Positions 2,161-31,348 of a stretch of 64,000 nt of DNA are shown one piece after another; position 1 is the stretch's first letter; each line of letters begins with the position of its first letter. The translations under genes were made by a program, and so were the position numbers. Source of the stretch: an uncultured delta proteobacterium (GTDB lineage: Bacteria; Desulfobacterota; Binatia; Binatales; Binataceae); the NCBI GenBank assembly GCA_963755705.1, contig CAVWKW010000001.1, forward strand, positions 165,884 to 229,883, written 5' to 3'. Under the pieces are notes generated by a model. The model was not told where the DNA came from. It saw only the letters and a list, made by a program, of their open reading frames with translations, and ran no database searches.

Positions 2161-2193
2161 TCCGCGCTGGTATTAGCCGAGGGAGGATGCCAG

Positions 2194-4084: not shown

Positions 4085-5386
<1,302 letters not shown>

Positions 5387-5460: not shown

Positions 5461-5469
5461 GTACTCGCG

Positions 5470-5560: not shown

Positions 5561-5685
5561 AAGGGCTCTGCCGCAAGAGACGGAGTCCTTTGTGACCGTT
5601 CATATTCCGAACATGACAGCCTTCTGAGAGAACGCTTCGGCGCGGGTGTGCCTGCGACTCAATCCGGTTGGGAGGGCAATGATCT

Positions 5686-6990: not shown

Positions 6991-6991
6991 C

Positions 6992-7398: not shown

Positions 7399-7407
7399 TC
7401 GAGCAGA

Positions 7408-7500
7408 GTTGGTGATGGGGTTCACCGCTACAACCGCCCTTTCCTGAGCTGGGCTGATGACCCCTACCGAGGTGTAAGCCGGTAGGGGTTGGCTTTCTCA
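7408..7500 (+). promoter_or_regulatory. Second fluoride riboswitch (crcB motif) with terminator-type expression platform
   Basis: GGTGATGGGGTTCACCGCTACAACCGCCCTTTCCTGAGCTGGGCTGATGACCCCTACC is a near-copy of the riboswitch-1 aptamer core. It is followed by the hairpin CCCCTACC-N12-GGTAGGGG and TTGGCTTTCTC. Confidence 0.85.
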
Positions 7501-7593
7501 GGTTCCCTACCTGGTCATTCGAGATCTCTCGCAAATCGGCGCCGCCTCGCGCCGAGGGACGAGACTTAACGCCGCATGGAACGAGCGTAGCGG

Positions 7594-8547: not shown

Positions 8548-8559
8548 CCAAAGACTCCA

Positions 8560-10685: not shown

Positions 10686-10688
10686 TCG

Positions 10689-12278: not shown

Positions 12279-12293
12279 ACGGCGGGAACAGCC

Positions 12294-15211: not shown

Positions 15212-15384
15212 AGCTTGACCGGCGTTAAACGGAGTCTTAATTTTGAACTGTAGGCGGTGGAGTCCGCCGATATCTGCCATCCGGCCAATGACTCCTGCAA
15301 GCGGGTAGAGACCCGTGGCAGGAGTTTCCACTCCAGAAGCTGGGTCTCGAGACCGCTCCGACGATTGCTGATCGGAGGCCGCAA

Positions 15385-16212: not shown

Positions 16213-16926
16213 ATGGAGCGAATCATCCCCATGCGAATCTGCATCATCTCTGACCTGCATGCGAACCTCGAGGCTCTTGCAGCGTTGCCGAGCGACTATG
16301 ACGAGTTATGGGTATTGGGCGACCTGGTCGATTATGGTCCCGATCCGGCTGAAACGATCGAATTCGTCCGATCTCACGCGTTGACCGTGATTCGAGGCAA
16401 CCATGACAACGCGGTCGGATTCGGAACGGACTGCGGATGCTCTCCCCGATTCACCGCGATGGCGGAGGCAACACGCAAGTACACTACCTCAGTCTTGAGT
16501 GCGAGCGACAAGCAGTTTCTCCGCGACCTCCCGACGTGCGCGTGCCGCCAACTAGACGGTCGAGTATTTTTTCTCTGCCACGCGACCCCGTCGGATCTTT
16601 TGTACGAATACCGTCCGCCAGACTCTCCTCTGTGGGCCCGAGATGAGGAGTCCAGTTCAGGAGCGGACGTTCTGCTGGCGGGCCATACGCACCTGCCGTT
16701 CGTACGCGTCTTCGGCGAGCGCGTCGTAGCTAATCCGGGAAGTCTCGGACAATCGAAAGTTGGAGGTGCGCGTGCCCGCTATGCGGTCTGGCAGGATGAC
16801 CATATCGAGCTAAAGGACTACGAATATCCCGTCAATAAAACTATACACAAAATTCTGACACTGCCATTGCCCGAGGAAGTAAAGCACGATCTCGTCTGTG
16901 TGCTTCGCACGGGGACGGCGCCGTGA
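16213..16926 (+). CDS. Calcineurin-like metallophosphoesterase (YfcE/MJ0936/Vps29-fold family)
   Basis: Motifs ISDLHAN, VLGDLVDYGPDP, RGNHDN and GHTH, in canonical order. Confidence 0.8.
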   Translation: MERIIPMRICIISDLHANLEALAALPSDYDELWVLGDLVDYGPDPAETIEFVRSHALTVIRGNHDNAVGFGTDCGCSPRFTAMAEATRKYTTSVLSASDKQFLRDLPTCACRQLDGRVFFLCHATPSDLLYEYRPPDSPLWARDEESSSGADVLLAGHTHLPFVRVFGERVVANPGSLGQSKVGGARARYAVWQDDHIELKDYEYPVNKTIHKILTLPLPEEVKHDLVCVLRTGTAP

Positions 16927-17918
16927 GTACTAATAGTCATCGAGACGCCGCGCCGGCGCCGATTGCGATCACGGCGGACTCCGCAAAACTCACTGCTCTG
17001 GGACGTCACCTGCGATCTCTGCACGACGGGGACGGCGCGGTGATTGAGGCAATCGGCATCGGTGCTCCAGCGGTTCCGATCCTGCGGGCACTTCTGTCTG
17101 AGCGAGACTTCACGGGGATTTTCGAACCGCGGATGCGGGCCGTTCAGGCGCTGGCCGCGCTCAGAGCCACGAGCGAATTGAAAGAGTACGTTCGGGGGTG
17201 GCAATCGGCCTCAGACCCCGTCGAGCGATTCGGAGACGAGGCAGTGCTGGGGACGGCCGCCAGATTTTTGGGCGCGACTAAAGACGAAGACGCTTATCAG
17301 ATCTTGATCGCGGTGGCCCGAAAGCATCCGGTGCCTGGCGTCATCGAAGCATTGGGAAGCTGTGGCCGCAAGGAATCGATTCCGATCGTAATCAAAGCCC
17401 TTGCCGACGACGTCAGCCGTAGCGCCGCGGAACAGGCGTTAAGAATCCTCGGAGAGGTCGGCGCACCTGCACTCATCGAAGCCGCCCTGCGACCCGTAGC
17501 GAACTTTTGGGGCAGTGAAATTCCATCCAGTGTGCGGCGGCGCCGCAGCGCACTGATGCTGCTGTTCGAATTTGGCGTCACCCGCGACATTTGGGACCGC
17601 GTCCGCGGGTTGGCAGCGGATTCAGACGACGAGATCGCGGTCCACGCGTGCGCGATTGGCCTGACCGCCGGGACCTATCCCGACCAGCGCGATTGCGCGC
17701 GCCGAATGGTGGCACTGCTGCGTCAGGTGGCGTGGCCGCTTCATCGTGAAGTCGAGGACTGTCTGATAGTTCATTTCGCAATCGCGCGCGAGTTCGTCGA
17801 ACAGGCGATCAAAAGCCCGATGGACCTGATCGCGAATGACTTCGCGCGTGCCCGCTTCAAACGATCCCTGCGCCGGATCGCGGCGCGAGCATCAACCAGC
17901 CAGGCGCCCAGGAGTTGA
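16923..17918 (+). CDS. HEAT/PBS-lyase-type alpha-solenoid repeat protein
   Basis: Repeated ~30-aa units (AVxALGxIGxPAVPxLxxLLxD...) typical of HEAT-like repeats. Start overlaps the upstream stop. Confidence 0.7.
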   Translation: MSTNSHRDAAPAPIAITADSAKLTALGRHLRSLHDGDGAVIEAIGIGAPAVPILRALLSERDFTGIFEPRMRAVQALAALRATSELKEYVRGWQSASDPVERFGDEAVLGTAARFLGATKDEDAYQILIAVARKHPVPGVIEALGSCGRKESIPIVIKALADDVSRSAAEQALRILGEVGAPALIEAALRPVANFWGSEIPSSVRRRRSALMLLFEFGVTRDIWDRVRGLAADSDDEIAVHACAIGLTAGTYPDQRDCARRMVALLRQVAWPLHREVEDCLIVHFAIAREFVEQAIKSPMDLIANDFARARFKRSLRRIAARASTSQAPRS

Positions 17919-20380
17919 CCTCGATGCCGCAAGCAGCGTCGCAGATCTCGGATATCGCGAGCGATGCTGTCCGCCGCTATGACGATCTCAAGCTTGAGAT
18001 CGCGGCGATCGGACAGACCGCGATGCTCACCTGCACCAAAGATAAAGATGAGGAAGGTGAGCGAGCGTTCCAGTCGGTGCTGGCGCGGCTCGCTGAAGAT
18101 CACTTCAATCTCGCCGTTATCGGTCCCTTCAGTCGCGGTAAGAGCAGCCTGATGAACGCGATCCTCGGTTTTCAGGGCCTGCCCACCGGCCTCCTGCCGC
18201 ACACCTCCGTCATCACGACCGTCAGTTACGCGCCACACGAACGCGTTCTCGTTCGGTGCGCGGGATGGCCGCTTCCGCAGGAGGTTCGACTCGATCAACT
18301 CGCTGAGTATGTAACCGAACGGGGAAATCCCGGCAATCGGCGGGGCGTGGCGCTCGCGGAGATCCAGTTGCCGGCCGAGATCCTTCGCCACGGCCTCTAC
18401 TTTATCGATACTCCGGGCGTTGGTTCCGCGATCGTCGCCAACACAAAAACCACGGAACGGTTCCTTCCCGAGATCGATGCCGCGGTCTTCGTCTCCAGTT
18501 TCGATTTCGCCGTAAGCGAGGCGGATATCGAGTTCTTGCGTACCGTTACCGCGACGGTGGGCAAGGTATTTTTCGTCCTGAACAAACTCGACCTCACGTC
18601 GAAGTCCGAGGCCGAAGAAGTCATCAGATTCGTCCGCGACCGGCTCGACCGCGAACCGGGTATTGGGCGCTACTCTTTGTTCGCTGTGTCGGCCAAGCGC
18701 GCGCTCGAAGCAAAACTACATGGAGATTCGGGTGCGCTAGCCCAGTCCGGGCTGATTGAACTGGAGGATGCGCTGGCGGCATTCACGGCCTCGGACAAGA
18801 CGCACCAATTGTCCGTGCGCGTAATGGACCGCCTGGTCGCTCTGCTGCAACGCGAACGCGCACACGCCGGTTTTGCTGTAGCTTCAAAGCGATCTTCTTC
18901 GCAGGTCTCCGAAGCACTCGTCGGGTTCGATGAAAAGGCCGCCGTCCTCAAAGTGCGATGCGCGGCACTCGTAAACCGCCTTGGAGCGCTGGGCAATGAT
19001 GCGCTGCGCGCCTCTCAACGGCGCCTCGACTTCGCGTTCACCAGCCTCAAGCAAAGCGCGACTTTGAAATTCGCGCCGAACTTTCTTACCGGCAGGATAT
19101 TTTCCAGGCCGAATACGCTCGATACTTTCACGCGCAACGTGTCCGTGTTTTGTGCCGGCGCGCTCACGCGCGATTTACAAGTTTACGAGGCCGCACTGAA
19201 CGAGCATTTGGACCGGACAGCCGGTCCGGTCCGCACCGAACTTCTCGCTCTACCCTATGAAGTCTTCGACATCGCGATGAATGATGAGGGCAACACTCGC
19301 GAGCTTTCAAAGCTCTCTGCGGAAGAGCCCGAGGCAGCGCCGCCTTCTGTGGGGCTCGGGGGGATCGCGCGCATCGAGTGGAGACCGCGATTGCCGTGGT
19401 GGATATACGTGGCTCCCCGGCGCTGGTTTCCCGCGGCGATGAAGAGACAGTTTGCCGTCGCGCTCGGCGACCTGCTCGCCCAATACCGGTCCCGTGTCGA
19501 TGCGATGATCCGCGTCGTCCTGAAGGAATATGCAGAGAAACTGAATCGCGAAACTGAGAAGGCAATCGACGTTCAAGTGGCTCGCGTGAAAAAACTTCTC
19601 GCATCGGGAGGAATCGAAAAAAGTCGTCAGGTGTTCGAGACGCTTCTGGAACGAGCTAGAGAGCTAAGACGACGACTTGGTGACAACCCTGACCGTGGAT
19701 CACTGCCTGAGAATAGCGCCGCGGCTTCCGTCAGGGTGCGAGCGTGTCCTGTCTGCCGCACAGTTCTGCGCGCAGTCTTCGACTACTTAAGCAAGCTGCA
19801 ATATGAGTTGAGCATCGACGCTGACGCTCAACACCGACACGCGAAGAACGGCGGCTTTTGTTCGATGCACACGTGGATTTACGCCAGCATGACCTCGCCG
19901 GTTGCGATCGCGCGGGCCTATCCCGCGCTGCTAGACGCGCTTGCGGCTCGTCTGGAACGTGCTGCGGGAGAGGCGGTATCGATCGCGGAGCTGGCTCACG
20001 ACATTGACGATCTGGCGCCGTCGAAAGAGACTTGCGGAGCGTGCGCAATCGCCCGTGACGGAACGGAGCAGTCGGTCGCGGAGGTCCTTCGGCGCCTCGA
20101 TTCAGACGGGCGCAGCGAGGTTCCGGCCTTATGCCTGCCGCATTTGGCGATCGCACTTCACCTCGGATCGGAATTGAACGGCGCCCGTTTGCTGACCTCA
20201 CGATGCGCGAGCGCGCTGCTACGGGCTGCCGAAGACATGCGCCATCACGCGCTGAAGCACGACGCGATCCGGCGCGGCCTTATGTCGGGGGATGAGCGCG
20301 ATGCGCATCACACCGGCCTCAGAAAATTAACCGGCGACATGCTGCTGACACTCCCGCCTCGAGGGGACGACCGCCTCTAA
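17915..20380 (+). CDS. Dynamin-like GTPase (bacterial DLP family) with C-terminal double C2CH zinc modules
   Basis: G1 GPFSRGKSS, G3 DTPG and G4 NKLD in dynamin order, followed by a long helical region. The C-terminus carries CPVC-x35-FCSMH and CGAC-x28-LCLPH. Confidence 0.8.
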   Translation: MTSMPQAASQISDIASDAVRRYDDLKLEIAAIGQTAMLTCTKDKDEEGERAFQSVLARLAEDHFNLAVIGPFSRGKSSLMNAILGFQGLPTGLLPHTSVITTVSYAPHERVLVRCAGWPLPQEVRLDQLAEYVTERGNPGNRRGVALAEIQLPAEILRHGLYFIDTPGVGSAIVANTKTTERFLPEIDAAVFVSSFDFAVSEADIEFLRTVTATVGKVFFVLNKLDLTSKSEAEEVIRFVRDRLDREPGIGRYSLFAVSAKRALEAKLHGDSGALAQSGLIELEDALAAFTASDKTHQLSVRVMDRLVALLQRERAHAGFAVASKRSSSQVSEALVGFDEKAAVLKVRCAALVNRLGALGNDALRASQRRLDFAFTSLKQSATLKFAPNFLTGRIFSRPNTLDTFTRNVSVFCAGALTRDLQVYEAALNEHLDRTAGPVRTELLALPYEVFDIAMNDEGNTRELSKLSAEEPEAAPPSVGLGGIARIEWRPRLPWWIYVAPRRWFPAAMKRQFAVALGDLLAQYRSRVDAMIRVVLKEYAEKLNRETEKAIDVQVARVKKLLASGGIEKSRQVFETLLERARELRRRLGDNPDRGSLPENSAAASVRVRACPVCRTVLRAVFDYLSKLQYELSIDADAQHRHAKNGGFCSMHTWIYASMTSPVAIARAYPALLDALAARLERAAGEAVSIAELAHDIDDLAPSKETCGACAIARDGTEQSVAEVLRRLDSDGRSEVPALCLPHLAIALHLGSELNGARLLTSRCASALLRAAEDMRHHALKHDAIRRGLMSGDERDAHHTGLRKLTGDMLLTLPPRGDDRL

Positions 20381-20426
20381 GCGTCTGCAAGCCGCCTATG
20401 CAAATGCGGAACGAGATTACTCGCGA

Positions 20427-21635
20427 ATGGATCGACAATCAGAGCCTGTAATTCGCGGAGTTGAGGACCTCGATTCCGGCACGCGGTTGTTCAACCGGAA
20501 CATCGCGGGCATGTGTTTGGCAAGTCTACTCTCCGATCTCGGGCATGAAATGGCGACCTCGATCCTGCCGCTGTTCCTGATCGCGATTGGAGCATCGCCC
20601 TCGGCGCTAGGAATTATTGAGGGCGCATCCGACGGAGCCGCGACGTTCGCCAAACTGCTTGGCGGCAGGATCGCGGACCACAAGGGTTTGCGCCAAAAGG
20701 TCGCAAGCCTCGGATATTTGGTGACGGGTCTTGCAACCGGATCGTTTGCTGCAGCGACGACCTGGATCGAGTTGCTGATTGCACGGACAGTCGGATGGTT
20801 CGGCAGAGGAACGCGGGGACCATCACGCGACAATCTGCTGGTCGATTCAGTGCCACGCGCGAGGATCGGCGCGGCCCTTGGGATCCATCGGACCGCCGAT
20901 ACTCTGGGAGCGATCCTGGGTCCGCTGGCCGCGATGTTCCTGCTCCATCGAATCGGGTTCCGTAACATCTTTCTGCTGAGCCTCGTGCCGGGTGTGCTTG
21001 CGGCTGCGGCTTTTTACTTCTTTGTCCGCGAACCCAATGGCGAGGCCGTGGCGCAAGGGCAGACGATTCAGGGTTGGGATGTGGCCCTGCCATCCCGCTT
21101 CCGAATGTTTCTCGCCACAATTTTGCTGTTTGGAGTCGGAGATTTCGCCCACAGCATGCTGGTGCTCAGGGCCGCACAACTGCTCGGATCAACACCCAAG
21201 GCGATGAGCATCGCCGTTGGTCTGTACGTCATCCACAACACGGCGCACGCCGCGTTGTCTTATCCAATCGGAGTCATAGGCGACCGGATCGAGCGCCGGC
21301 GCCTTCTTGCTGCCGCCTACGTGATCGCTGCGATCGCCGCGGCCGGTTTCGCCATCGGACCACACAGCGTGGGCGCATTGGCGGTGCTCTTTATTCTCGA
21401 GGGCGCGGTGATGGCGGCGCAGGAGACGCTCGATTCAGCCGTCGCGACCGATATGTTGCCAGCCGACTCGCGCGGGGCGGGATTTGGCGTATTGAATGCG
21501 ACGAGCGGAGTCGGCGACTTCGTGTCGAGCATCGTGGTCGGATTTCTTTGGACCGGCTTCTCTGGCCACATAGCCTTCGCGTATAGCGCAATCTTAAGCG
21601 CACTGGCGGCGGTAATGATGACTTGGGCGATCTGA
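20427..21635 (+). CDS. MFS transporter
   Basis: 402 aa, 12 predicted TM. G-R-(I)-xD-(R/H)-xG-R-(R/K)-type loop (GGRIADHKGLRQK). Confidence 0.8.
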   Translation: MDRQSEPVIRGVEDLDSGTRLFNRNIAGMCLASLLSDLGHEMATSILPLFLIAIGASPSALGIIEGASDGAATFAKLLGGRIADHKGLRQKVASLGYLVTGLATGSFAAATTWIELLIARTVGWFGRGTRGPSRDNLLVDSVPRARIGAALGIHRTADTLGAILGPLAAMFLLHRIGFRNIFLLSLVPGVLAAAAFYFFVREPNGEAVAQGQTIQGWDVALPSRFRMFLATILLFGVGDFAHSMLVLRAAQLLGSTPKAMSIAVGLYVIHNTAHAALSYPIGVIGDRIERRRLLAAAYVIAAIAAAGFAIGPHSVGALAVLFILEGAVMAAQETLDSAVATDMLPADSRGAGFGVLNATSGVGDFVSSIVVGFLWTGFSGHIAFAYSAILSALAAVMMTWAI

Positions 21636-22150
21636 GAGAAATAGCTGGGCCTGGTGACGAGGATGATGGATTCCTTTTGCGGAGCAGCCGCGCAAACCAG
21701 CACGGCAAAAAGCGATCGTCTGGGTCGCTGTCCATGAACTATTCGCACACGTTAAGACTTTCGATCGTGATGCGCGCGGTTGAGGACGCGGTAATCGAGA
21801 TCGAGCGCGCGCTTGAACCCGCATCGAAAGCTCCCCAGCGCGTGATGACCGATTATCAGAACGATCTCCCCGAATCCGCAAGGTTTGAGATGCGCAGGAA
21901 GCTTGAGGAGATTCGTAAAGCAATCCAGGATGCGAAAGATTGCTATGACTTGAACGTCGAAACCGTCTCTAATCGCCGGCGTCTCTCGACCAAATTGTCG
22001 ATTCTCGCGATCGATGTGACTGAATGCAGACCTGAGTATATGCGCGGCTACGGTGAGGTGGCGCACGAAGAGCACGAGCCGCTTGACCAGCGGATGTTAC
22101 AGTTAGAGGCTCTATTAAGCGACCTGAACAAACTTGCAAGCCAAGTCTAA
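21623..22150 (+). CDS. Hypothetical protein (true start probably internal, near 21734)
   Basis: ORF only. No recognisable motif. Confidence 0.3.
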   Translation: MGDLREIAGPGDEDDGFLLRSSRANQHGKKRSSGSLSMNYSHTLRLSIVMRAVEDAVIEIERALEPASKAPQRVMTDYQNDLPESARFEMRRKLEEIRKAIQDAKDCYDLNVETVSNRRRLSTKLSILAIDVTECRPEYMRGYGEVAHEEHEPLDQRMLQLEALLSDLNKLASQV

Positions 22151-22483
22151 AGCAGTCCCTTCTCAGGATTCACGCAGCGCAACGTGCATTCCGGCGCCCT
22201 GTTCGCTCCATCGAACGAACCGCATGCCCCTGCCGTGCCGTTGGTTAGGTTCTCTCATTTCCTCATTTCCGGATGGTGGGCGCACAGACAGATTGCCGCT
22301 CAGCACGGACGATCGATGGGTAATTCGTTGCCGGCGTCGGCGACGTGCACGAGGGGCTCGCAAGATATCTACTGACAGCCAGCAAGGAACCGCCGTCCCG
22401 TCGAGGTGCGGGTGGCCTCGCGTCGTTGTCCAACTTCGCAGGCGGTTGCTCGGAGCCCAACCGCTTCCGGCAAGCATGCTGAT

Positions 22484-22825
22484 ATGCTAAATAGCTCAGA
22501 GATGAAAACCTTGGGACAGTTTATCGTTGAGCGGCGCAAGGAGCTGGGGCTGGCGGGACGCGAGTTGGTGGCGGAGGTGCGCAACTCCGATGGCAAACCG
22601 ATCTCGATTCCGTTCCTGGTTGACCTCGAACACGATCGCCGCAAGCCTTCCGACGAAGTCCTTGAACAACTCGCCAAGGTTCTCAAGGTCGATTCGGATG
22701 TGCTCTACTTTTTGGCAGGGCGGTTTCCAGCCGACCTCAGCGCGACGACCGTCAACAGCGCGCAGGAACTCGCCGCGGGCTGGAAGGCGTTTCGGCGAGA
22801 AGTAAGGCGCAAGAAGAAGCCGTGA
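22484..22825 (+). CDS. XRE-family helix-turn-helix transcriptional regulator
   Basis: MKTLGQFIVERRKELGLAGRELVAEV has an HTH_XRE-like layout. Immediately upstream of an ImmA-like gene. Confidence 0.7.
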   Translation: MLNSSEMKTLGQFIVERRKELGLAGRELVAEVRNSDGKPISIPFLVDLEHDRRKPSDEVLEQLAKVLKVDSDVLYFLAGRFPADLSATTVNSAQELAAGWKAFRREVRRKKKP

Positions 22826-22894
22826 AGATGATACCGGACAGGACCGGGCGCTTTCCGGAGCGTCCGCACTGGGAGATTCCGCGAGCTTGAGCAG

Positions 22895-23489
22895 ATGTGC
22901 GAGGAGACGATTACCTCCTTTCTGCGCCAGCACTTCGGGTTTGAGCGCATCCCGGTTCCGACCGAAGCGGTCACGATGTTGATCGAGCGTGACGCCGCCG
23001 ACCTCGATTTGGCGACGAATCTGTCCGATGATATTCACGAGGTGTTTGGTTCACCCAGTTTCGAGCGCGGCGAAAAGCCGCGTGGTCAAAATCGCGCGGG
23101 AGCTGTGGGAGCAACGGCATCGTAACAATCGCTTGCGCACGACGCTGACCCACGAATATGGCCACGTGATGCTGCACACGTGGCTGTACGACAAGTACGG
23201 CGCTGCCCGCGGTCCCGACCGCTGTTACTGGCAGAGCCTGCTTCCGACCGAGCGGGTGGTGGACTGGTTTGAGTGGCAGGCGGGTTACGCCTCGGGTGCC
23301 TTGCTGATGCCGGAGAGCTTCGCGCGGCGCACGGTCGAGGCGTATTTCCAGAATCGCTCTGAGCGTCCGCCGGTCGCCAAGGGCTCGCCGGAAGCGTCAG
23401 CACTCTGCCAGCGTATATCCCTCGCGTTCGATGTCTCCGTCGAAGCCGCCACCGTGCGGCTCAAGCAACTCGGCTATCTGACCGAGTAG
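22895..23489 (+). pseudogene. ImmA/IrrE-family HExxH metallopeptidase gene with an apparent frameshift around 23050-23075
   Basis: Frame A (22895..) reads naturally to ...NLSDDIHEVFGSPSFERGE. Frame B continues ...KSRVVKIARELWEQRHRNNRLRTTLTHEYGHVMLH (HExxH) to 23489. The two ORFs overlap in different frames. Confidence 0.55.
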
Positions 23490-23764
23490 CTCCAACAACA
23501 AGCTCCCGACCATTTCGCGCCGACCGATCTTCGCGCTTGACACTCGCCCGATATCTCGCTACATAGCGAGTTAGTCACGTAGCCAAACATCGGCAGATTG
23601 CCCATGATCCAAGCCGCAATAGAGCAAGCGCCGAAATCGAACGTCAGATGGCTCATCGCCGCCTGCGCCGCCGCCCTGTTCACGCTTCGAGCCGAGCCGT
23701 CGCTGGGCCGCACCGATACGCAGGTGCCCTGCCGTGGGATCAGACGCTTGGCGCGATTCAAGAC

Positions 23765-23935
23765 ATGCTGGTCGGTCCCGTGGCTCACGCCGTAATAGTG
23801 CTGAACTTCGCCTTGTCGGCAATCCTATACGCGATCGGCAGCTACCCACGAGCAGGGCGCCTGCTGGCTGGCGGAGTAGCGGCTTGGGCCGCCCTGATCG
23901 CCGTCCAATTGCTGACTTACCTCGCGCCCTTCTGA
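23765..23935 (+). CDS. Small two-TM membrane protein (hypothetical)
   Basis: MLVGPVAHAVIVLNFALSAILYAIGSYPRAGRLLAGGVAAWAALIAVQLLTYLAPF. Lies inside the mobile-element region. Confidence 0.3.
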   Translation: MLVGPVAHAVIVLNFALSAILYAIGSYPRAGRLLAGGVAAWAALIAVQLLTYLAPF

Positions 23936-23972
23936 GCAGTCCTTTCCAAGCAACCATTGGTGGAGGTCCGAT

Positions 23973-24245
23973 ATGAAACTCGCACGCATCGCAAAGCCGC
24001 TTCGTTCCATACAGGTACGCGTGACGCTGGCCGGCGACCTGAATGCCGCCCTCGAAAGTTACGCGCGCTACTACGAGCACGTTCACGGCGACGCTGTGGA
24101 TTCGAAGGCGCTGATTCCGGAGATTCTCAGTGCCTTCCTCCAAGCTGACCGTGAGTTCCAGATTTGGTCACATTCCAGCGGTGGCAGTCATCATCGCCGC
24201 CCCAGTTCGTCTTCGTCCAACGGCAGCGCCAAGGGCCAATCGTGA
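23973..24245 (+). CDS. DUF2274-like protein (ICE/conjugative-element associated)
   Basis: MKLARIAKPLRSIQVRVTLAGDLNAALESYARYYEHVHGDAVDSKALIPEILSAFLQADREF resembles DUF2274 proteins found at the end of ICE transfer operons. From memory. Confidence 0.45.
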   Translation: MKLARIAKPLRSIQVRVTLAGDLNAALESYARYYEHVHGDAVDSKALIPEILSAFLQADREFQIWSHSSGGSHHRRPSSSSSNGSAKGQS

Positions 24246-24269
24246 CTGCCATCAGCGGAAAGTCGGCTG

Positions 24270-24440
24270 ACGTGCTTCGCACGTGTTTGGGATTGACACG
24301 TCACTCATCGCCTGGATGAACGCGATTCGTGCAAGTGCCCGTAAACATTGAGCAGACGCTGTCTACAGGAACACGTGCGAAGCCGTCTAAACCCCCGCCA
24401 AATCAGCGTAAACACCCGTCTACAGGCGGCTTTGGAGAAA
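24270..24440. promoter_or_regulatory. Candidate oriT/regulatory region: 12-bp inverted repeat GCTTCGCACGTG / CACGTGCGAAGC plus direct repeats (CGTAAACA x2, GTCTACAGG x2)
   Basis: Read from the sequence upstream of the RHH gene and the coupling-protein/relaxase genes. Confidence 0.3.
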
Positions 24441-24445
24441 CAGCC

Positions 24446-24790
24446 ATGAGCACCCGATCGATCTCAACCCGAGTCCCGGAAGAAATTGCCGATCAGCTCG
24501 CGGCCGAAGCGCGCCGCCGAAGCGTCACCGAGAGCGACCTCATTCGCGAGATTCTCGCCGCGCGCTATCTCGGCGCCGCTCTGTCAGCGATGGAACCTCG
24601 GCCAAAAATCCAATCGTTGGATGAGTACGCGCAGCTCATCTTCGAGATCGCCAAGACTCGCTCCGTGATCCTGCATTCGCTGGACCACACGCTGGGAGCG
24701 GAGGTGGTCAACGAGATCATCGACGCCGCCGAGCAGACCGCCAAGGAGCACGTCGCACAGGTGCTCAAGAGCAAGGAGACTTCGTCATGA
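24446..24790 (+). CDS. Ribbon-helix-helix (CopG/MobC-like) protein, possible relaxosome accessory factor
   Basis: MSTRSISTRVPEEIADQLAAEARRRSVTESDLIREIL has an RHH beta-strand-helix pattern. Directly precedes the T4CP. Confidence 0.5.
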   Translation: MSTRSISTRVPEEIADQLAAEARRRSVTESDLIREILAARYLGAALSAMEPRPKIQSLDEYAQLIFEIAKTRSVILHSLDHTLGAEVVNEIIDAAEQTAKEHVAQVLKSKETSS

Positions 24791-25060
24791 CGCCCATCAT
24801 TCGTCAGGCAATCCACGAACACGCCCTTTATGCTTCGCTGGAGTTCAGACTCAGAGAGGCGCTCCGTTACCTTCTCGTGACCGCGGCGCTTTGGGTCGAG
24901 ATGACCGTGTGCCTGGTCTGGCACTGGAGCGGGCCATTACGGCGGTCCGGCCGCGCATCGCTACTTCATCCGCTGGGTTCTGGCGTGGTTCCTGACCCAG
25001 GAGATTCCGCTGAGCTTCGCCTCGCTTCCCTATCGCGGCGGGCGCTACACCATCGCCAGC

Positions 25061-26581
25061 ATGTACGCCTTTCTCAATTACAAGTATTACCTCGGCGGTT
25101 CGTTCGCTGCATGGTACTGGCACTACGCACCATGGGGAGCGGCGCTCACCGGTCTGATCGAAGCCGCCGCCGTAGCGGTTCTCTTGGTGCGCCGCGGTCC
25201 GGGCGAAGCCAGACATATTCGCGGCGTCACTCTCGTTCCAGCGCGCAAACTCGCCCGCAGGCTGGGCGGCCGCGCGGGCATTCGGCTCGCTGGCGTTCGC
25301 ATACCGCGCGCGCTGGAGTGCCAACACTTTCTGGTCACCGGCTCGACCGGGTCCGGCAAGTCGGTCGCGATACGTTCGCTGCTTCGGCAGATTGAGCAGC
25401 GCGGTGAAACCGCGGTCGTGGTCAACCCGGAGTGCGAGTTCGTCTCGGAGTTCTATCAACCCGGGCGCGGTGACTTCATCCTCAATCCGCTCGATGCCCG
25501 TTGCCCGCGCTGGTCACCGTGGCGCGAGCTGCGCGATGAAAGTCACGACGCCGACTGCGAGGCGCTGGCCGCCTCGCTGCTCCCTGACCCACCGGACGCG
25601 TATCACGAGGGCGGAGCGAGCTTCTTTTTCCGTCAGAGCAGCCGGACGCTGCTGACCAGCATCTTCCGGATCGCCGAGCCCAGGGAAGCGTCGTCGATCC
25701 CGCGCCTGCTCACGCTGCCGCGGGCCGAACTCAGACGGGCGCTGGCAGGAACGCCAGCCGAAGCGCTGATCGATCCCGGAGCGCACGAGCAGGGCGCCGG
25801 CATCGTCGCTACCGCGGCAAACGCGACCAAGGCCTTTCACTACCTGCCTGAGAACGCGCCGCGAAGTTGGAGTGCACTCGATTGGTCGGCGAAGCGGTCG
25901 GGCTGGCTGTTTCTGACCTCGTCCGAGGAATCCAAAGACGCGGCGCTTCAGTTGCAGAGCGTGTGGCTGGATTGCATCATCCACCGGCTGCTGAGCCGGG
26001 AACTTATGCCGCGCCGACGGGAACAGGTCTGGATCGTTGCAGACGAGCTTCCGGTCCTGAGACGGCAAGCGAAGCTCGAGGATCTGGTCGTCCGCGGACG
26101 CAAGCGCGGGTTGGCGGTCGTGCTCGGCTTTCAGGCTATTACGCAACTGCGGACCATCTACGGCGTCAACCAGGCCGCCACCTTGGTCGCCTCGCCCGCC
26201 ACCAAGCTGATTCTCAGAACCGGCGAACCTGAGACCGCCCAATGGTGCAGCGCGCAGATCGGCGAGCGCGAGGTTGAGCGCGGCCACCTGAGCGCCAACG
26301 CGAGTCATCGAGAGCAATACTCGTTCGGTATCCGCGAACAGCGAACGACGGAACCGGCGGTGATGGCCGCCGAGATGCAGCTGCTCCAGCCGCTGTCGGG
26401 CTACCTCTGCGTCACCGGTCATCACCGCTCGTTGGTGCGCCTCGACTGTCTCGCACCACAAGTCCGACAGGAAGCTTTCATCCCGCGCGTCAATCCGCCC
26501 GCGCTGGTGAAGCCAGCGCGGCGATCGCAGGTGATCGCGCTTGGTCCCGCAGCGGCGTGCAAACGCAGGAAACGGATCTGA
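25061..26581 (+). CDS. Type IV coupling protein (TraD/VirD4/TrwB family)
   Basis: Walker A FLVTGSTGSGKS and N-terminal hydrophobic segment. An overlapping ORF 24787..25395 in another frame may be a frameshifted N-terminal extension. Confidence 0.8.
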   Translation: MYAFLNYKYYLGGSFAAWYWHYAPWGAALTGLIEAAAVAVLLVRRGPGEARHIRGVTLVPARKLARRLGGRAGIRLAGVRIPRALECQHFLVTGSTGSGKSVAIRSLLRQIEQRGETAVVVNPECEFVSEFYQPGRGDFILNPLDARCPRWSPWRELRDESHDADCEALAASLLPDPPDAYHEGGASFFFRQSSRTLLTSIFRIAEPREASSIPRLLTLPRAELRRALAGTPAEALIDPGAHEQGAGIVATAANATKAFHYLPENAPRSWSALDWSAKRSGWLFLTSSEESKDAALQLQSVWLDCIIHRLLSRELMPRRREQVWIVADELPVLRRQAKLEDLVVRGRKRGLAVVLGFQAITQLRTIYGVNQAATLVASPATKLILRTGEPETAQWCSAQIGEREVERGHLSANASHREQYSFGIREQRTTEPAVMAAEMQLLQPLSGYLCVTGHHRSLVRLDCLAPQVRQEAFIPRVNPPALVKPARRSQVIALGPAAACKRRKRI

Positions 26582-26584
26582 GCC

Positions 26585-29344
26585 ATGCTGGTAATGTCGA
26601 AAGGCGCGCTCAGTGTAGGCCAGGCCGAGACCTACTATCAGGAGAAATACTCCGAGGACGACTACTATACCGAGTCCCACCGTGTCACCGGCCAGTGGTA
26701 TGGAAGAGCTGCGGAGACTCTCGGGCTGAGCGGAGCAGTCAGCGAAGAAGATTTTCGGGCCGTGCTGCGCGGAACCAGACCCGGTAGCGGCGAAGTCCTG
26801 GTCAGTGCTGCCGCTGGCCGTGACGACCGCCGCGCAGGTTGGGACGCGACGTTCAATGCGCCCAAGTCAGTCAGTATCCAGGCGCTGGTTGGCGAAGATT
26901 CGCGACTGGTAGAGGCGCATCGGCGCGCGGTCGAGCGCGCACTCTCGGAACTTGAGCAGTTCGCCCAGGCGCGCCGCCACCGCGGACAGGAGTGGGTTAC
27001 CACCGGCAACTTCGTTGCGGCCCGCTTCGAGCACATCGCCGCGCGGCCATCGGAGACCGGGACCCGGGACGGCTACGGCCCTGACCCACACCTACATACC
27101 CACGTCGTAATCGCCAACCTGACGCTGCGGCCGGACGGCAGGTGGCGGAGTCTCGACCCGATCGAGATCTATCGCAGCCAGAGCTTTGCGACCGCGGTTT
27201 ACCGCTCGGAACTTGGCCGCGAAGTCCAAGCGCTCGGATATCGAATCAGCGTGACCGCGGCCGACGGACGCTGGGAGCTGCAAGAATACACACGCGAACA
27301 GGTAATGGCGTTTTCGCGCAGACGCCAGGACATCGAAGCACTTCTTTCCCGCCAAAACTCAACCGGAGCGGCAGCCGCCCAGATCGCCGCCCATCAGAGC
27401 CGGCTGGCCAAAGAAAAGCGCAACGAAAACGAGCTTCGCGCGGAATGGAAGGCGCGCGCCCATGACAATCGAATCGCTCTCGCCGAGATTTCGGAACGCG
27501 CGCTCGCACGCGGCCCCTCGCAGGCGGTTTCTCCGGCTGGGACAGAGGAAGCGGTCAGATTCAGCGTAGCTCACAACACCGAACGCGAAGCCGTTACCGA
27601 CCGGCGCGCTCTGGAGCGCACCGCTCTTCAGTACGCGATGGGAGTCGCCGATCTCGACGGCGTGCGGCGGGAGACCGGCGTGCGGGAATCACGTGGCGAT
27701 CTAATCGCCCTTGCTGTCTCCTCTTCGTTTCCGGGAGTCGTCTACACCACCCCGGAGATGGTGGCGGCGGAGGCCGAAAACCTTGAACTTATGCGCGCCG
27801 ACAGAGGGCACGCCCAGGCGATCACCACTGAACCAGAGGCGCGCAGTTGGGCAGCCGAGCGCTCGCTATCGGCCGAGCAGACACAGGCCGCAGTGCTGAC
27901 GCTGACTGCCACCGATTGGCTTACCTCGATCGAAGGGCGCGCGGGCGCAGCGAAGACTACTACGGTCGGAGCGCTCAACGACTTCGCTGAGAGCGCTGGC
28001 TACGCGGTACGCGGTTTCGCTCCGACCACGCGCGCCGTAAAGGCGCTCTCCGAAGCGGGAATCGAATCCCGGACTGTCGCGAGCCTGCTCGCAAGCCCGC
28101 TTCCCGATCGCGCCCCGAAGGAACTGTGGATTATCGATGAGTCGAGTCTGCTCGGCACTCGCCAGATGAATGCCCTGCTACACCAGGCGCGCGAGGCCGG
28201 GGCCGGTCGCGTCGTCTTCGTCGGCGACCAGCGCCAGCACCACGCCATCGAGGCTGGCCGACCCATCCAACAGATGCAGCAGGCGGGCATGCCGGTCGCG
28301 CGATTGGAGACTATCCGTCGCCAACTCGATCCCGGATTGCGCGAGGCGGTCACGCTCGCTTCGCGCGGAGAGGTTGGACAGGCAATCGCACTCCTCGAGC
28401 TGCAGGGCCGCATCCGGGAGATTGTCGATCCGAATGAGCGCCACGCAGCGATTGCGCGCGAATACCTCGCCGCGCACGAAGCAGGTGAAAAGGTTCTCGT
28501 CGTCAGCCCCGCCAACGACGAGCGCCGCCAGTTGAACGCCGCTATTCGCGCAGCGCTCAAGGAACGCGGGCACCTCGCCTCCGACGGACGAGAACAGCTC
28601 GTGCTCGTAAACCGCGCGCTGACCCGGCCTCAGCGTAAACGAGCGCAGAGTTACGAGGTCGGCGACGTGCTCCGATTCCGGCGTGGAAGCTCGCGGCTCG
28701 GTATCGACCGCGGCAGCTATGCCCACATCGAAGCAATCACCCCGGAACGGAACCAAATCGTGGCGCGCGATGAAAGAGGAAAAGCTGTCAGCTACGATCC
28801 TTCGCGTCTGTCTGGCGTCGAGGTCTTCCATCAGGAGCGCCGCGTGCTCGGCGCTGGCGATCGGATTCAATTTCGCGCTCCGGATCGTGCGCTCGGGGTC
28901 GCCAATGGAGAGTTTGCGACCGTCATCGCCATCGACGATCGCAAAGCACGCCTGCGCCGCGACAACGGGCGCGAGATCAGCGCGGCAATCGAGCGTCTGA
29001 AGCACATCGATTACGGCTACGCTTCTACTTCTCACTCAAGCCAGGGCGCTACGGTTGATCGTGTGATCGCTAATATCGATACCGCTCGCTCGGCTGAACT
29101 CGTCAACCGCAAACAGTTTTACGTCTCGATCAGCCGCGCGCGGTATGCGATGAGCCTGTACACCGACGACCGTGCCAGACTCGACTCAGCCGTGGGGCGC
29201 AATCGCGAAAAGTCGATTGCCCTGGAACGGCTCAATCTGAACCTCGGGCGAAGGCTTCAAGATCGTTCCAGAACCGCCGCGCCGCAACTTCACTCCCGCC
29301 CACGGCATCCGAAGGTGACTGGTCTTGCCGAACCCTGCGGTTGA
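26585..29344 (+). CDS. MobF-family conjugative relaxase with C-terminal RecD-like helicase (TrwC/TraI-like)
   Basis: N-terminal relaxase domain with His triad HLHTHVVIAN. Helicase Walker A GRAGAAKTT. 919 aa. Confidence 0.85.
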   Translation: MLVMSKGALSVGQAETYYQEKYSEDDYYTESHRVTGQWYGRAAETLGLSGAVSEEDFRAVLRGTRPGSGEVLVSAAAGRDDRRAGWDATFNAPKSVSIQALVGEDSRLVEAHRRAVERALSELEQFAQARRHRGQEWVTTGNFVAARFEHIAARPSETGTRDGYGPDPHLHTHVVIANLTLRPDGRWRSLDPIEIYRSQSFATAVYRSELGREVQALGYRISVTAADGRWELQEYTREQVMAFSRRRQDIEALLSRQNSTGAAAAQIAAHQSRLAKEKRNENELRAEWKARAHDNRIALAEISERALARGPSQAVSPAGTEEAVRFSVAHNTEREAVTDRRALERTALQYAMGVADLDGVRRETGVRESRGDLIALAVSSSFPGVVYTTPEMVAAEAENLELMRADRGHAQAITTEPEARSWAAERSLSAEQTQAAVLTLTATDWLTSIEGRAGAAKTTTVGALNDFAESAGYAVRGFAPTTRAVKALSEAGIESRTVASLLASPLPDRAPKELWIIDESSLLGTRQMNALLHQAREAGAGRVVFVGDQRQHHAIEAGRPIQQMQQAGMPVARLETIRRQLDPGLREAVTLASRGEVGQAIALLELQGRIREIVDPNERHAAIAREYLAAHEAGEKVLVVSPANDERRQLNAAIRAALKERGHLASDGREQLVLVNRALTRPQRKRAQSYEVGDVLRFRRGSSRLGIDRGSYAHIEAITPERNQIVARDERGKAVSYDPSRLSGVEVFHQERRVLGAGDRIQFRAPDRALGVANGEFATVIAIDDRKARLRRDNGREISAAIERLKHIDYGYASTSHSSQGATVDRVIANIDTARSAELVNRKQFYVSISRARYAMSLYTDDRARLDSAVGRNREKSIALERLNLNLGRRLQDRSRTAAPQLHSRPRHPKVTGLAEPCG

Positions 29345-29747
29345 AACATTTTTTCATCGGCGCTTCGCTGTGAGCGCGGACGCTCGGGCTGCGCAAGCTT
29401 CGCCGCGAGGCCACGCGGCCCATCGCGCCGCTCGCGCTCCGCTGCGCGCCGCTGTGATGGTGGCGCGCGCTCCGCGGGCAACCGCGCCGAGCGCAGCGCC
29501 CGGCACGGTTGCTACGCTCCGCCACGCGCATCTCAGAATCCTGCGCCGCCCTCCAGATTCGGTCGAGAGGGCGGCGCTTTCGAAATGCTGCGCTCTCAAA
29601 CAGGCATCGGAGCGCCCTTCCCTGCGGGACGCGGGCGCGGAGATGAAGAAGGTGCGAGAGCGTTGGTGTACTTGACTTGCGGCGGATATATAGCTAAGTA
29701 GCTACTATTACCTTGAGGGCTGGCGGACAAAGCCAACCATTTGTTCG

Positions 29748-30086
29748 ATGATGACAACCTTCAAATTCGCGCGCGAGGCAGGCTCGGGGCTCAATCGATT
29801 CCCCAATGCGGACGAGATCGCCGCCATGACGCCCGAGCAAGCGGAAGCCACCCTCGTTGCCGCAACTTCAGTGTTGCCGCTACTCGTCGCCAGGGCGAAG
29901 GAGACGCGGCCGGCCGACGCTCCTGAGTGGATCACGGTCGGCGACGCTGCGGCGCTCTCGGGGATGAGTCGCTTTTTCTTCTATGACCACTGGAAAGAGC
30001 TTCCTTTCTGCCGGAAGATTGGACGTTCGGTAAAGCTCAATCACAGGGGGCTTCGACAGTGGCTAGAAACGAAAAAGGCAGCGTGA
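29748..30086 (+). CDS. AlpA/excisionase-like HTH DNA-binding protein
   Basis: WITVGDAAALSGMSRFFFYDHWKELPF resembles the excisionase/AlpA-type HTH. Overlaps the integrase start. Confidence 0.55.
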   Translation: MMTTFKFAREAGSGLNRFPNADEIAAMTPEQAEATLVAATSVLPLLVARAKETRPADAPEWITVGDAAALSGMSRFFFYDHWKELPFCRKIGRSVKLNHRGLRQWLETKKAA

Positions 30087-31237
30087 AAGTCGCGGACAAC
30101 CTTTATCGCCGACCCGACAGCCCCAATCTCTACATCGTTTGGCACCAAGGGGGCCGCAAGCGCTGGCAGTCCACCAAGACCAGCTTAGTCAAGGAGGCGA
30201 AGCGTCTGCGAGATGAGTTTCTTGCTCGCATCAGAGCCTCCGGATTGACGCGCGATGAGCGCGTCACATACGAGCAGATTCGGCAGGTCTACATCGATCA
30301 CTGCTCGATTCACGGTCGAATCGCGTCGCTCGAAGGTTTCCTTGACACCAGGGCGAAACACCTTGACGCGTTTTTCAGCAGTCTGCGCGCTATCGAAATT
30401 TCGCAGAGCGGTGCGATCGGACGATACGTCGCGCTGCGCAAACGCGAGGGCGCTTCTAACGCCAGCGTGAACCGCGAGACACAAGTTCTGGGGCAGATGT
30501 TCCGGCTTGCCGCCGATGATGAACATCGCCTGATTGGTCGTGGACTGGTGCCGCAGATTAGAAAACTCGAAGAGCCGCCGCCGCGGCAGGGGATCGTGAC
30601 CGAGAAGCAGTTTGCCGAGATTCTCGTCAAACTTCCCACGTGGGCCATCGCGCCAATCGAAGCGATAAACATTACCGGGTGGAGGGTCCGTGCGGTTTTG
30701 AGCCGACGTAAGATAGACGCTGACCTTGAAAACGGCTTTCTGGTGCTTGATCGCGAGTCGTCCAAGAATCGCACCGCGTATAAGTGGCCGTTGGTTGGAG
30801 AATTGGGTGAACTCGTGCGCGGACAACTTGAGCTGATCGCTCGAGATGAACACAAACTGAGGCGGCTGATTCCTTGGCTCTTCCATCGCGACGGCAGACC
30901 GATTCCGTACGGCACGCTCTATGACGCCTGGCGCGAAGCTGCGAAGGCTGCGGGTTATCCCGGAAAGCTGATGCACGACTTCAGGCGCACGGCTGCAACG
31001 CGCTTGGATTCGGCGCCGGGAATTTCGCGCTCTGTCGCGATGACATTGCTCGGGCACAAGACCGACATCATGTTCCGCAGGTACATACAGCGCCCTGATG
31101 AGCGCTTGATCGAGGCTGCAAAGGCGCTGGCTGACTTCCGAGCCTCACAACTCGCCAACGGCAAATCGGAAGCAAAACGGTCACAATTCCGTAGCAGAGG
31201 GCCTGAAATTACGATGCTAGATTCAAAGAAAATGTAA
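30059..31237 (+). CDS. Tyrosine site-specific integrase (phage integrase family)
   Basis: C-terminal catalytic region HDFRRTAATRLDSAPG...LLGHKTDIMFRRYIQ (R..H-x-x-R..Y). Confidence 0.85.
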   Translation: MARNEKGSVKVADNLYRRPDSPNLYIVWHQGGRKRWQSTKTSLVKEAKRLRDEFLARIRASGLTRDERVTYEQIRQVYIDHCSIHGRIASLEGFLDTRAKHLDAFFSSLRAIEISQSGAIGRYVALRKREGASNASVNRETQVLGQMFRLAADDEHRLIGRGLVPQIRKLEEPPPRQGIVTEKQFAEILVKLPTWAIAPIEAINITGWRVRAVLSRRKIDADLENGFLVLDRESSKNRTAYKWPLVGELGELVRGQLELIARDEHKLRRLIPWLFHRDGRPIPYGTLYDAWREAAKAAGYPGKLMHDFRRTAATRLDSAPGISRSVAMTLLGHKTDIMFRRYIQRPDERLIEAAKALADFRASQLANGKSEAKRSQFRSRGPEITMLDSKKM

Positions 31238-31252
31238 TTAAATCAAGGAATT

Positions 31253-31348
31253 GGAGGAGGAAGGGGCCCGGTGGCCCCACCGGTCTTCAAAACCGGCCTG
31301 GCGGCTAATATTGTTGCCGGAGGGTTCGACTCCCTCCCCCCTCCGCCA
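31253..31348 (+). tRNA. selC: tRNA-Sec (selenocysteine, anticodon UCA)
   Basis: 8-bp acceptor stem GGAGGAGG/CCCCCTCC with one A-C mismatch. 6-bp D-stem GGGGCC/GGCCCC with 4-nt loop CGGT. Anticodon stem CCGGT/ACCGG with loop CTTCAAA (U33, anticodon TCA, A37). Long variable arm. T-arm GAGGG-TTCGACT-CCCTC. Discriminator G then CCA. The 8/6-bp architecture is diagnostic of bacterial tRNA-Sec. Confidence 0.8.

Follow-up and report, generated by a model that had tools for sequence, protein, structure and literature searches.

How does an integrated element come to lie on the 5' side of a tRNA gene, with its integrase gene reading straight into that gene? Integrases that target tRNA genes classically replace the 3' end of the gene, so that the host promoter is kept, and the islands found at selC in Enterobacteriaceae (such as LEE and SHI-2, which encode P4-type integrases) are located 3' of selC, whose 3' end they duplicate. 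The question is raised by a stretch of 64,000 nt from a Candidatus Binataceae bacterium (the window, i.e. the whole stretch of DNA analysed), in which a xis-like gene, a tyrosine integrase gene (int) and tRNA-Sec follow each other on the + strand. As a preliminary description of this DNA had noticed, the three genes are co-oriented and the element lies on the 5' side of the tRNA; indeed, only 15 nt separate the stop codon of int (31235-31237) from nt 1 of tRNA-Sec. We propose, with a probability of about 85%, that the window carries most of an island of about 37.4 kb inserted in the 5' half of tRNA-Sec, and that genes 22400-31237 are its mobilization and integration backbone. This island fits the definition of an integrative and mobilizable element (IME) and not that of an integrative and conjugative element (ICE).

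Sequences compared and searches

The window was compared with related loci, designated below by L numbers. Assemblies of the same species cover the backbone side (L001, L002) and the left side (L145, L146) of the island. L145 and L001, the latter carrying int-tRNA-CinA, are two ranges of one contig, and positions 1-3000 of the window are 100% identical in both L145 and L146. Loci with related integrases were sampled from metagenome contigs selected by their integrase, from genome contigs selected by a tRNA-Sec pattern and through protein look-ups. The tRNA genes were called with ARAGORN and Rfam, the proteins were classified with Pfam and NCBIfam, and the riboswitches were identified with Rfam RF01734.

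Attachment sites and the empty site

The complete tRNA-Sec of the window corresponds to attR. The opposite end, attL, is found 6,111 nt to the left of window position 1 (position 8847 of L145), where both L145 and L146 carry nt 1-48 of tRNA-Sec on the + strand (2736-2783) with 100% identity. The distance from attL to the complete tRNA-Sec, on the same contig and the same strand, is 37.36 kb. The fragment is followed by about 150 nt that are homologous to the sequence found after isolated fragments of tRNA-Sec (nt 1-45), not called as tRNA by ARAGORN, in two GTDB loci (L078 and L132); the left arm of L145 is 88-93% identical to these over the first 68-86 nt. The fragment of L132 belongs to a second attL-attR pair. 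It lies on CAVTIS010000008.1, on the same strand as the complete tRNA-Sec of L085 and 34.8 kb from it, and TrwC, xis and an int gene with 79% identity immediately precede this complete gene. Among the loci examined, none offered an empty site with the left flank of L078.

The comparison with relatives lacking the element, suggested by the preliminary description, turned out to define both ends. In two relatives (L063 and L065), adh_short, DLH, tRNA-Sec and CinA are adjacent with nothing between them, adh_short-DLH being located about 730-750 nt upstream of an intact tRNA-Sec. The ORFs upstream of the tRNA in these empty sites have no match in the window because the true left flank lies outside it; the synteny is seen with L145. 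The adh_short and DLH proteins show 97% and 94% amino acid identity, the flanking DNA is 89% identical and the right flank (CinA-DoxX) 92-93% identical. In the window, CinA starts 26 nt 3' of tRNA-Sec. When attB, attL and attR are aligned (alignment A3), nt 1-45 are invariant and constitute the block common to the family; attL departs from the tRNA after nt 45/48 and attR departs from attB before nt 1.

A fourth type of junction was found in a metagenome locus (L036), in which the 3' end of int is followed by a -10-like box, by nt 1-41 of tRNA-Ser(UGA) and then by the same left arm, and in which ARAGORN calls no tRNA. This structure is that expected of an attP site, or alternatively of a junction within a tandem array. 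Among the explanations listed in the preliminary description, an attB on the 5' or anticodon side of the tRNA is thus the one supported by attL, attR, attB and the attP-like junction. At attR, tRNA-Sec would be a chimera whose 5' part comes from the element and whose 3' part is chromosomal; the latter is considered as chromosomal because of the synteny with the empty sites, which extends over the 3' half of the tRNA and CinA. The aligned junctions place the crossover within nt 1-45 (nt 1-41 in the clade targeting tRNA-Ser), probably at the symmetric anticodon stem-loop by analogy with the 'A' subsite defined for Islander islands.

Some assemblies end near this site. Two Logan short-read contigs (L004 and L005) both stop inside the tRNA, at nt 28-29, as expected if assemblers fail at the 48-nt repeat shared by attL and attR, and an NCBI MAG contig (L003) ends 81 nt upstream of int.

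Polarity of the integrase clade

The arrangement observed in the window was searched for in 42 loci in which a related integrase or a remnant of it (34-100% identity) is followed by 120 nt of DNA or more, a sample that includes some redundant copies from the same species. A co-oriented tRNA gene lies directly downstream of int in 41 of them, tRNA-Sec in 27 cases and tRNA-Ser(UGA) in 14, the sole exception being the attP-like junction of L036. In most loci, the tRNA begins at most about 20 nt after the actual or projected stop codon of int; the two overlap in a few truncated remnants. As the arrangement is kept in 41 of the 42 loci, the orientation is a property of the clade and not the outcome of a rearrangement. 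Integrases with 79-96% identity to that of the window are found at tRNA-Sec, and those found at tRNA-Ser(UGA) mostly have 72-78% identity, up to 82%. The two tRNAs have 19 of 20 nt in common across the anticodon stem-loop.

Related backbones (XRE-ImmA-TrbC-DUF2274-RHH-T4CP-TrwC) associated with other integrases served as a control and display the canonical arrangement, their int gene converging on the 3' end of tRNA-Glu (L150) or tRNA-Pro (L151 and L152). No tRNA fragment was found within 17 kb at the left ends of these three loci. In L149 (751-9675), the same backbone with a different integrase adjoins cas3, cas1, cas2 and cas4, and a 4.4-kb stretch without called genes that precedes XRE may be a CRISPR array.

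The tRNA-Sec gene of Binatia also undergoes insertions from the other side. Seven loci (L049, L050, L068, L074, L077, L112 and L139) have a fragment of its 3' end (about nt 64-96) on the downstream side, at a distance of 0.5-3.4 kb, and therefore the gene is targeted from both ends, by different elements. In L109 (JBOHWI010000074.1), the tRNA-Sec (3457-3552, - strand) has an integrase gene on either side. The one upstream is of the 5' type and shows 80% identity to that of the window; the other, 29% identical, is located just downstream on the opposite strand, in the canonical 3' position. Two contigs harbour two complete tRNA-Sec genes, which are 4.2 kb apart in direct orientation in JAJYVB010000073.1 (L059 and L076) and about 107 kb apart in inverted orientation in CAVXXK010000001.1 (L106 and L142); the left-flank gene DLH lies about 7 kb from the tRNA-Sec of L142. 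Furthermore, at the locus of P0018 (JGI 3300047160), a 72%-identical integrase of the clade adjoins small ORFs including a Terminase_2 gene, and the integration module of the clade may thus serve phage-like elements too.

Proposed integration mechanism and tRNA expression

In the mechanism that we propose, the attP site recognized by the integrases of this clade would carry nt 1 to ~45 of tRNA-Sec, a segment that begins with the acceptor stem and extends to the end of the anticodon stem-loop, and that of the sister clade would carry the corresponding part of tRNA-Ser(UGA). This segment would be located directly downstream of int and be preceded by the -10-like box, so that the predicted attP of the element runs from the 3' end of int through TTAAATCAAGGAATT and nt 1-45 of tRNA-Sec to CTGTTCGGCTAATCAGCCAAAATAGCC. 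Recombination with the chromosomal tRNA gene would take place inside the 45-nt identity block. The native 5' half and the native promoter region would then be moved to the far left end, generating attL, and the 5' half of the element and its upstream region would be joined to the chromosomal 3' half, generating attR. The int gene would read straight into the tRNA because the element's own 5' half sits beside int at attR. The predicted restored attB consists of GCTAAAGCGGAGCTG followed by the complete tRNA-Sec and CinA. For its transfer, the element would need the type IV secretion system (T4SS) of a helper ICE. The same integrase appears to be used by related full-size ICEs, which have Trb genes (TrbI and TraF-like peptidase in L007).

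Two kinds of signals were found around the core. A putative arm-type site, GGTCACAATTCCGTA, is located at 31179-31193, 60-74 nt before tRNA-Sec. There is a single copy of the motif GGTCACAAnnnCGTA in the window, at this same position in the P arm. L145 also has a single copy, in the P' arm, 89-103 nt past the core, and both are considered here as putative arm-type sites. Directly 3' of the int stop codon lies a -10-like hexamer, TTAAAT (31238-31243). In 30 unique int-tRNA junctions, a T-A-A-A-A-T-like hexamer (-15 to -10) and a TT dinucleotide (-2/-1) are nearly invariant, positions -13 to -10 (AAAT) and -2/-1 (TT) being kept in 27-30 of the 30 unique upstream sequences. This conserved box would be the -10 element that drives tRNA-Sec.

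In many Binatia (L080, L111, L038/L039, L052, L096, L106 and L123), all that is left of this element is a fragment joined to the tRNA-Sec 5' end, be it the final 87 nt of int, a piece of xis or a C-terminal remnant of int. The retention of such remnants is consistent with selection for the donated 5' half and the upstream box.

The mobilization and integration backbone

The genes named in the preliminary description (XRE-ImmA, DUF2274, RHH, type IV coupling protein (T4CP), MobF relaxase, xis and int, all on the + strand) were recovered with Pfam and NCBIfam; a TrbC/VirB2-like gene had been overlooked (Table 1). The DNA homology to sister elements begins at about 22475, and no conserved gene was found upstream of XRE in the other loci. 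The ImmA gene of the window is split across three reading frames by frameshifts at 22881 and 23053-23083 relative to L001 and L002. Its product has 1279 homologues, and the named ones among the matches listed (120) are from Binataceae/Binatus.

The match of the TrbC-like protein to PF04956 is below the cutoff, and the precomputed match of the copy from L001 to the same family carries no weak flag. In L007, DUF2274 comes directly after TrbI and TraF-like peptidase genes that form the end of a Trb operon. DUF2274 and the solitary TrbC-like gene of the window therefore look like leftovers of such an operon. The RHH protein is likely a relaxosome accessory factor. A conserved non-coding block upstream of its gene, GACACGTCACTCATCGCCTG, is also present at the left edge of a minimal relative (L144, 1640-1660), directly before RHH-T4CP-TrwC, and constitutes a candidate oriT region.

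The T4CP gene of the window is frameshifted by an extra G at 24929, the removal of which yields a 597-aa ORF; intact 597-aa T4CP genes are present in L001, L002 and L143. The relaxase gene is intact in the window. Its product combines the N-terminal TrwC relaxase domain and the C-terminal SF1B helicase that characterize the MOBF family and scores 257.8 bits with NF041492 (cutoff 100). The 116-aa ORF that follows is conserved, with 50-76% identity by tblastn, in L006, L008-L011, L013, L020 and L085, and the xis-like gene also adjoins int in related loci. The integrase is placed by NCBIfam only as a generic member of PF00589, its score with the XerA model being 30 bits for a cutoff of 220. Its candidate catalytic residues for the R...K...HxxR...H/W...Y signature, read from the translation, lie in TGWRVR, KNRTAYKW, HDFRR, LLGHKT and FRRY, and its sole match among solved structures, 5c6k, is weak (E = 0.005) and covers the core-binding region only.

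As the preliminary description had indicated, mating-pair-formation (MPF) genes are lacking: none was found by Pfam in the backbone or in any large ORF of the rest of the island. Of the self-encoded T4SS that defines an ICE (VirB4/TrbE, VirB6, VirB8-10), only a sub-threshold TrbC/VirB2-like gene was found. The element is classed as an IME rather than as an ICE because int, xis, relaxase, T4CP and a candidate oriT are present and MPF genes were not found. Between the two proposals made earlier, a mobilizable element or a decayed ICE, the first is retained, the second, in the form of a stranded remnant, being contradicted by attL and by the empty sites. The element may still be mobile at present.

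Table 1. Features of the island, in the coordinates of the window unless L145 is indicated.
Feature	Position	Strand	Evidence or remark
In-window part of the island	1-31252	.	attL off-window on the left
Fluoride riboswitch	L145 8121-8190 (off-window)	-	Before dynamin-MutS_V-MutS_V
IS1-like transposase ORF	1155-2099	+	PF03400, weak match
Inorganic pyrophosphatase	2889-3422	-	Pfam
Fluoride riboswitch before pyrophosphatase	3521-3589	-	RF01734, 39 bits
Enolase	4085-5371	-	Pfam; among riboswitch operons
Cargo: fluoride riboswitch (5464-5533), then DUF190-CBS and CrcB fluoride channel	5464-7366	+	RF01734, 54.1 bits; Pfam
Cargo: fluoride riboswitch (7402-7473), then 8-kb group-4 [NiFe]-hydrogenase/Mrp-like membrane complex	7402-15211	+	RF01734, 51.5 bits
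Cargo: fluoride riboswitch (15244-15304) and downstream operon	15244-20380	+	RF01734, 35.1 bits; Pfam
MFS transporter	20427-21635	+	Pfam MFS_1
138-aa hypothetical protein	21734-22150	+	Just left of the backbone
XRE-family repressor (HTH_3)	22502-22825	+	Pfam; leftmost conserved backbone gene
ImmA/IrrE-type metallopeptidase (Peptidase_M78)	22822-23489	+	PF06114 on C-terminal part
TrbC/VirB2-like small protein	23648-23935	+	PF04956, 25.2 bits, below cutoff 27.9
DUF2274 protein	23973-24245	+	PF10038, 47.7 bits
Conserved non-coding block GACACGTCACTCATCGCCTG	24295-24314	+	Upstream of RHH
RHH protein	24329-24790	+	Pfam RHH_1, weak match; position kept in relatives
TrwB/TraD-type T4CP	24787-26581	+	PF10412, 295 bits
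MobF (TrwC-type) relaxase-helicase	26585-29344	+	PF08751, 278.6 bits; AAA_30; UvrD_C_2
Conserved 116-aa ORF	29325-29675	+	Between relaxase and xis
xis-like HTH_17 protein	29748-30086	+	Weak Pfam match; overlaps int start
Tyrosine integrase, 392 aa	30059-31237	+	PF00589, 44.8 bits, cutoff 27.1
P arm	31179-31252	+	Putative arm-type site and -10-like hexamer
Direct-repeat core, tRNA-Sec nt 1-48	31253-31300	+	48/48 identity to L145 2736-2783
Complete tRNA-Sec (attR)	31253-31348	+	ARAGORN (sole tRNA in the window); Rfam RF01852, 70.4 bits, gathering score 47

Cargo and fluoride riboswitches

The island contains five fluoride riboswitches (RF01734; 35.1-54.1 bits, gathering score 34). Four of them are located in the window, and the fifth was read from L145. 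As in a fluoride regulon, they are located upstream of, and co-oriented with, genes of fluoride-associated classes. The gene classes most commonly associated with this riboswitch include those of pyrophosphatase, enolase, Na+/H+ antiporters and formate hydrogen lyase (PMC11139923). The hydrogenase/Mrp-like complex of the island was recognized through the Pfam families NADHdh, Proton_antipo_M, Complex1_30/49kDa, NiFeSe_Hases and Oxidored_q6. The operon that follows the riboswitch at 15244-15304 encodes a 275-aa ORF, a metallophosphoesterase, a HEAT-repeat protein and an 821-aa dynamin-like GTPase; to our knowledge, no link between dynamin-like GTPases and fluoride has been described. The MFS transporter gene and the 138-aa gene that separate this operon from the backbone are absent from all 101 tRNA-Sec loci of other Binatia.

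Extent and history of the island

The start of the element had been set at 22400, and a search for att repeats in 15200-24500 had been suggested. No such repeat is present there, position 22400 is only the left edge of the backbone, window positions 1-22400 are cargo, the island has a size of about 37.4 kb and not about 9 kb, and attL lies 6.1 kb outside the window. Within the window, no repeat of any segment of tRNA-Sec exceeds chance expectation, whether searched for with blastn-short or with strict and permissive Smith-Waterman alignments. The check for a repeat of the tRNA 3' end downstream of the gene, recommended in the preliminary description, was likewise negative in the window. The XRE edge (about 22475) was discarded as an att site, because no consistent short core common to it and to the tRNA region was found in the window, L006, L008 and L010. 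L060 and L114 also have candidate 5' fragments (nt 1-42 and nt 15-37, respectively), which were not used as evidence. No integrase lies between them and the tRNA; the genes found there encode P450, acyl-CoA dehydrogenase, a sigma factor and an NHL-repeat protein.

The alternative that survives best, and which we regard as possible but not as the likelier history, is a composite origin, in which an IME of about 9 kb was inserted at tRNA-Sec and the 28-kb fluoride block was added later between attL and XRE, or in which two elements fused. Elsewhere, the backbone is bordered on the left by unrelated DNA (CopB and an IS in L006, an IS30-like sequence in L010, MutS_V in L143), and an IS1-like ORF is present in the cargo. 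Moreover, the interior of the backbone (22600-29260) differs by 1% from L001 and by 3.4% from L002, whereas int, xis and both flanks are 100% identical among these same-species assemblies. This variation suggests recombination with related elements or a mixed population. Mosaicism is also visible between species: compared with L006/L008, XRE, ImmA and int show 92-97% identity, T4CP 58% and TrwC 67%. However, the island has a single attL, a single attR and no internal tRNA fragment, and a cargo that varies at the int-distal end is normal for ICEs and IMEs. A composite origin touches the history of the cargo; the integration mechanism and the present boundaries are unaffected by it.

It is improbable that the element is a decayed, stranded ICE remnant, limited to the backbone of about 9 kb (22475-31252), which would have lost its left att site and whose left neighbourhood would be chromosomal. 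Such a remnant would agree with the lack of any other tRNA-Sec fragment in the window, with the end of the homology to sister elements at about 22475, with the frameshifts in ImmA and T4CP and with the many remnants of the family found beside tRNA-Sec elsewhere (L038, L052, L080, L096, L106, L111 and L123). It is contradicted by the perfect nt 1-48 fragment, followed by the left arm of the family, that the same contig carries 37.4 kb upstream, on the same strand. Furthermore, close relatives have adh_short-DLH beside tRNA-Sec-CinA, and therefore the whole 37 kb is an insertion; the intervening DNA, with its five fluoride riboswitches and its IS1-like gene, is accessory in character.

Much less probable still is a tRNA-Sec that would be borne entirely by the element, the latter integrating downstream of the tRNA or at a site other than a tRNA. 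The proximity of int, only 15 nt away, and the probable expression of the tRNA from element sequence would suit this idea, already put forward in the preliminary description. However, the 3' half of the tRNA and the CinA flank are chromosomal, being syntenic with relatives that lack the element, and only nt 1-45 would come from the element; likewise, the junction of L036 has only nt 1-41 and the attL fragments stop at nt 45-48. Finally, a rearrangement or chance adjacency, i.e. the displacement of a canonical 3'-end integrase to the 5' side of tRNA-Sec by inversion or deletion, is hardly credible: tRNA-Sec is indeed also a canonical 3' target in this group (seven loci with 3' fragments, second integrase of L109), but co-orientation and similar spacing are kept in 41 of the 42 clade loci with two different tRNA genes, attL and the attP-like junction hold the 5' half and not the 3' half, and no 3' repeat lies downstream in the window.

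Several points weigh against the proposed 37.4-kb IME. Its attL lies off the window and was read from L145 and L146; that it precedes the window in this very genome is inferred from them. As attL and attR do not differ within the 45-48 nt repeat, the point of crossover cannot be located inside it, and sequence alone does not tell which of the two 5' halves is that of the element. No left end was found within the DNA examined for the sister short-form elements L006, L008, L010, L143 and L144. A cargo of 28 kb that includes enolase and pyrophosphatase genes is unusual for a mobile element; it may stem from secondary events, an IS1-like gene being present. A strict scan for the sigma-70 consensus upstream of tRNA-Sec found no promoter, and the -10-like box has no convincing -35 partner. 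Lastly, ImmA and T4CP are frameshifted in the window and TrwC carries indels in L001/L002, which may reflect assembly errors or decay of the element.

Relationship with known systems

The 5' polarity is rare but already known. In the Islander database (Hudson, Lau & Williams 2015, PMC4383910), 159 of the 3919 islands have a 5' tDNA fragment and 3760 a 3' fragment, and the filters expressly admit 5' fragments upstream of the tRNA gene. The orientation was thus rightly described as atypical, but it had been catalogued before. A full-text literature search for 5'-fragment islands returned no match, the only figures being those of the Islander table. The island described here has the features used by Islander: an intact tRNA gene at one end, a same-orientation 5' fragment upstream (off-window, in same-species assemblies), a PF00589 integrase inside and an empty attB. 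It resembles the 5'-fragment class in these respects and in a predicted crossover at the 'A' subsite, the portion of the gene to which the anticodon stem-loop belongs. Whereas this class was known as a count only, the elements described here form a coherent integrase clade of Binatia that shows this polarity only, that targets tRNA-Sec or tRNA-Ser(UGA) and in which a -10-like box abuts the donated 5' half. The LEE and SHI-2 islands share the same hotspot, tRNA-Sec, but the present island lies 5' of the gene and duplicates nt 1-45/48.

The backbone resembles the DNA processing module of R388 (TrwC/TrwB/TrwA) and that of MOBF IMEs, the RHH, TrwB-type T4CP and TrwC-type relaxase genes being found in a row with a candidate oriT upstream. 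Unlike the R388 module, it is integrated in the chromosome, is associated with an XRE-ImmA pair, a lone TrbC-like gene and DUF2274, and has a predicted role in transfer; the related full ICEs carry P-type Trb genes (TrbI and TraF-like peptidase in L007) and not the Trw MPF genes.

A comparable cargo has been described in Enterobacter cloacae FRM, whose GI3 is a horizontally acquired fluoride-resistance island with riboswitch-controlled crcB, enolase and pyrophosphatase genes (PMC5533749). Both islands thus associate fluoride riboswitches with crcB, enolase and pyrophosphatase genes in horizontally acquired DNA. In contrast to GI3, the present island has five riboswitches, a hydrogenase/Mrp-like complex and two dynamin-like GTPase operons, as well as defined att sites and its own relaxase and T4CP; its role towards fluoride is predicted from sequence.

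Significance

What is new here is a clade of Binatia integrases that is exclusively 5'-polar at tRNA-Sec and tRNA-Ser(UGA), documented for all junction types and associated with a fluoride cargo. The availability of attB, attL, attR and, from a sister element, an attP-like junction makes 5' polarity experimentally tractable and raises the question of how the tRNA is expressed once its promoter has been swapped. There is also a lesson for the prediction of islands: the element is four times larger than its recognisable backbone, and its far end was found only through the 5' tRNA fragment. In soil Binatia, mobilizable islands can carry a fluoride-response regulon that comprises an extra enolase and pyrophosphatase, CrcB and a hydrogenase/Mrp-like complex.

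A broader reading, which we offer as a tentative one that may well prove wrong, is that the clade consists of obligate replacers of tRNA 5' halves that place a host tRNA under signals of the element, in an addiction-like relationship, and that the island is the first mobilizable multi-operon fluoride regulon. If so, tRNA-Sec, or tRNA-Ser(UGA) in the sister clade, would be transcribed from signals supplied by the element. Selenoprotein synthesis would thereby be tied to the right end of the element, which would act as a built-in stabilisation or addiction device, and this would account for the int and xis remnants that persist at the 5' end of the tRNA (L038, L052, L080, L096, L106, L111 and L123). 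The near-identical anticodon stem-loops would have enabled the switch of target between tRNA-Sec and tRNA-Ser(UGA). The island would then have no precedent as a mobilizable fluoride-response regulon of several operons with defined att sites, and operons encoding dynamin-like GTPase and MutS_V proteins would come under the control of fluoride riboswitches.

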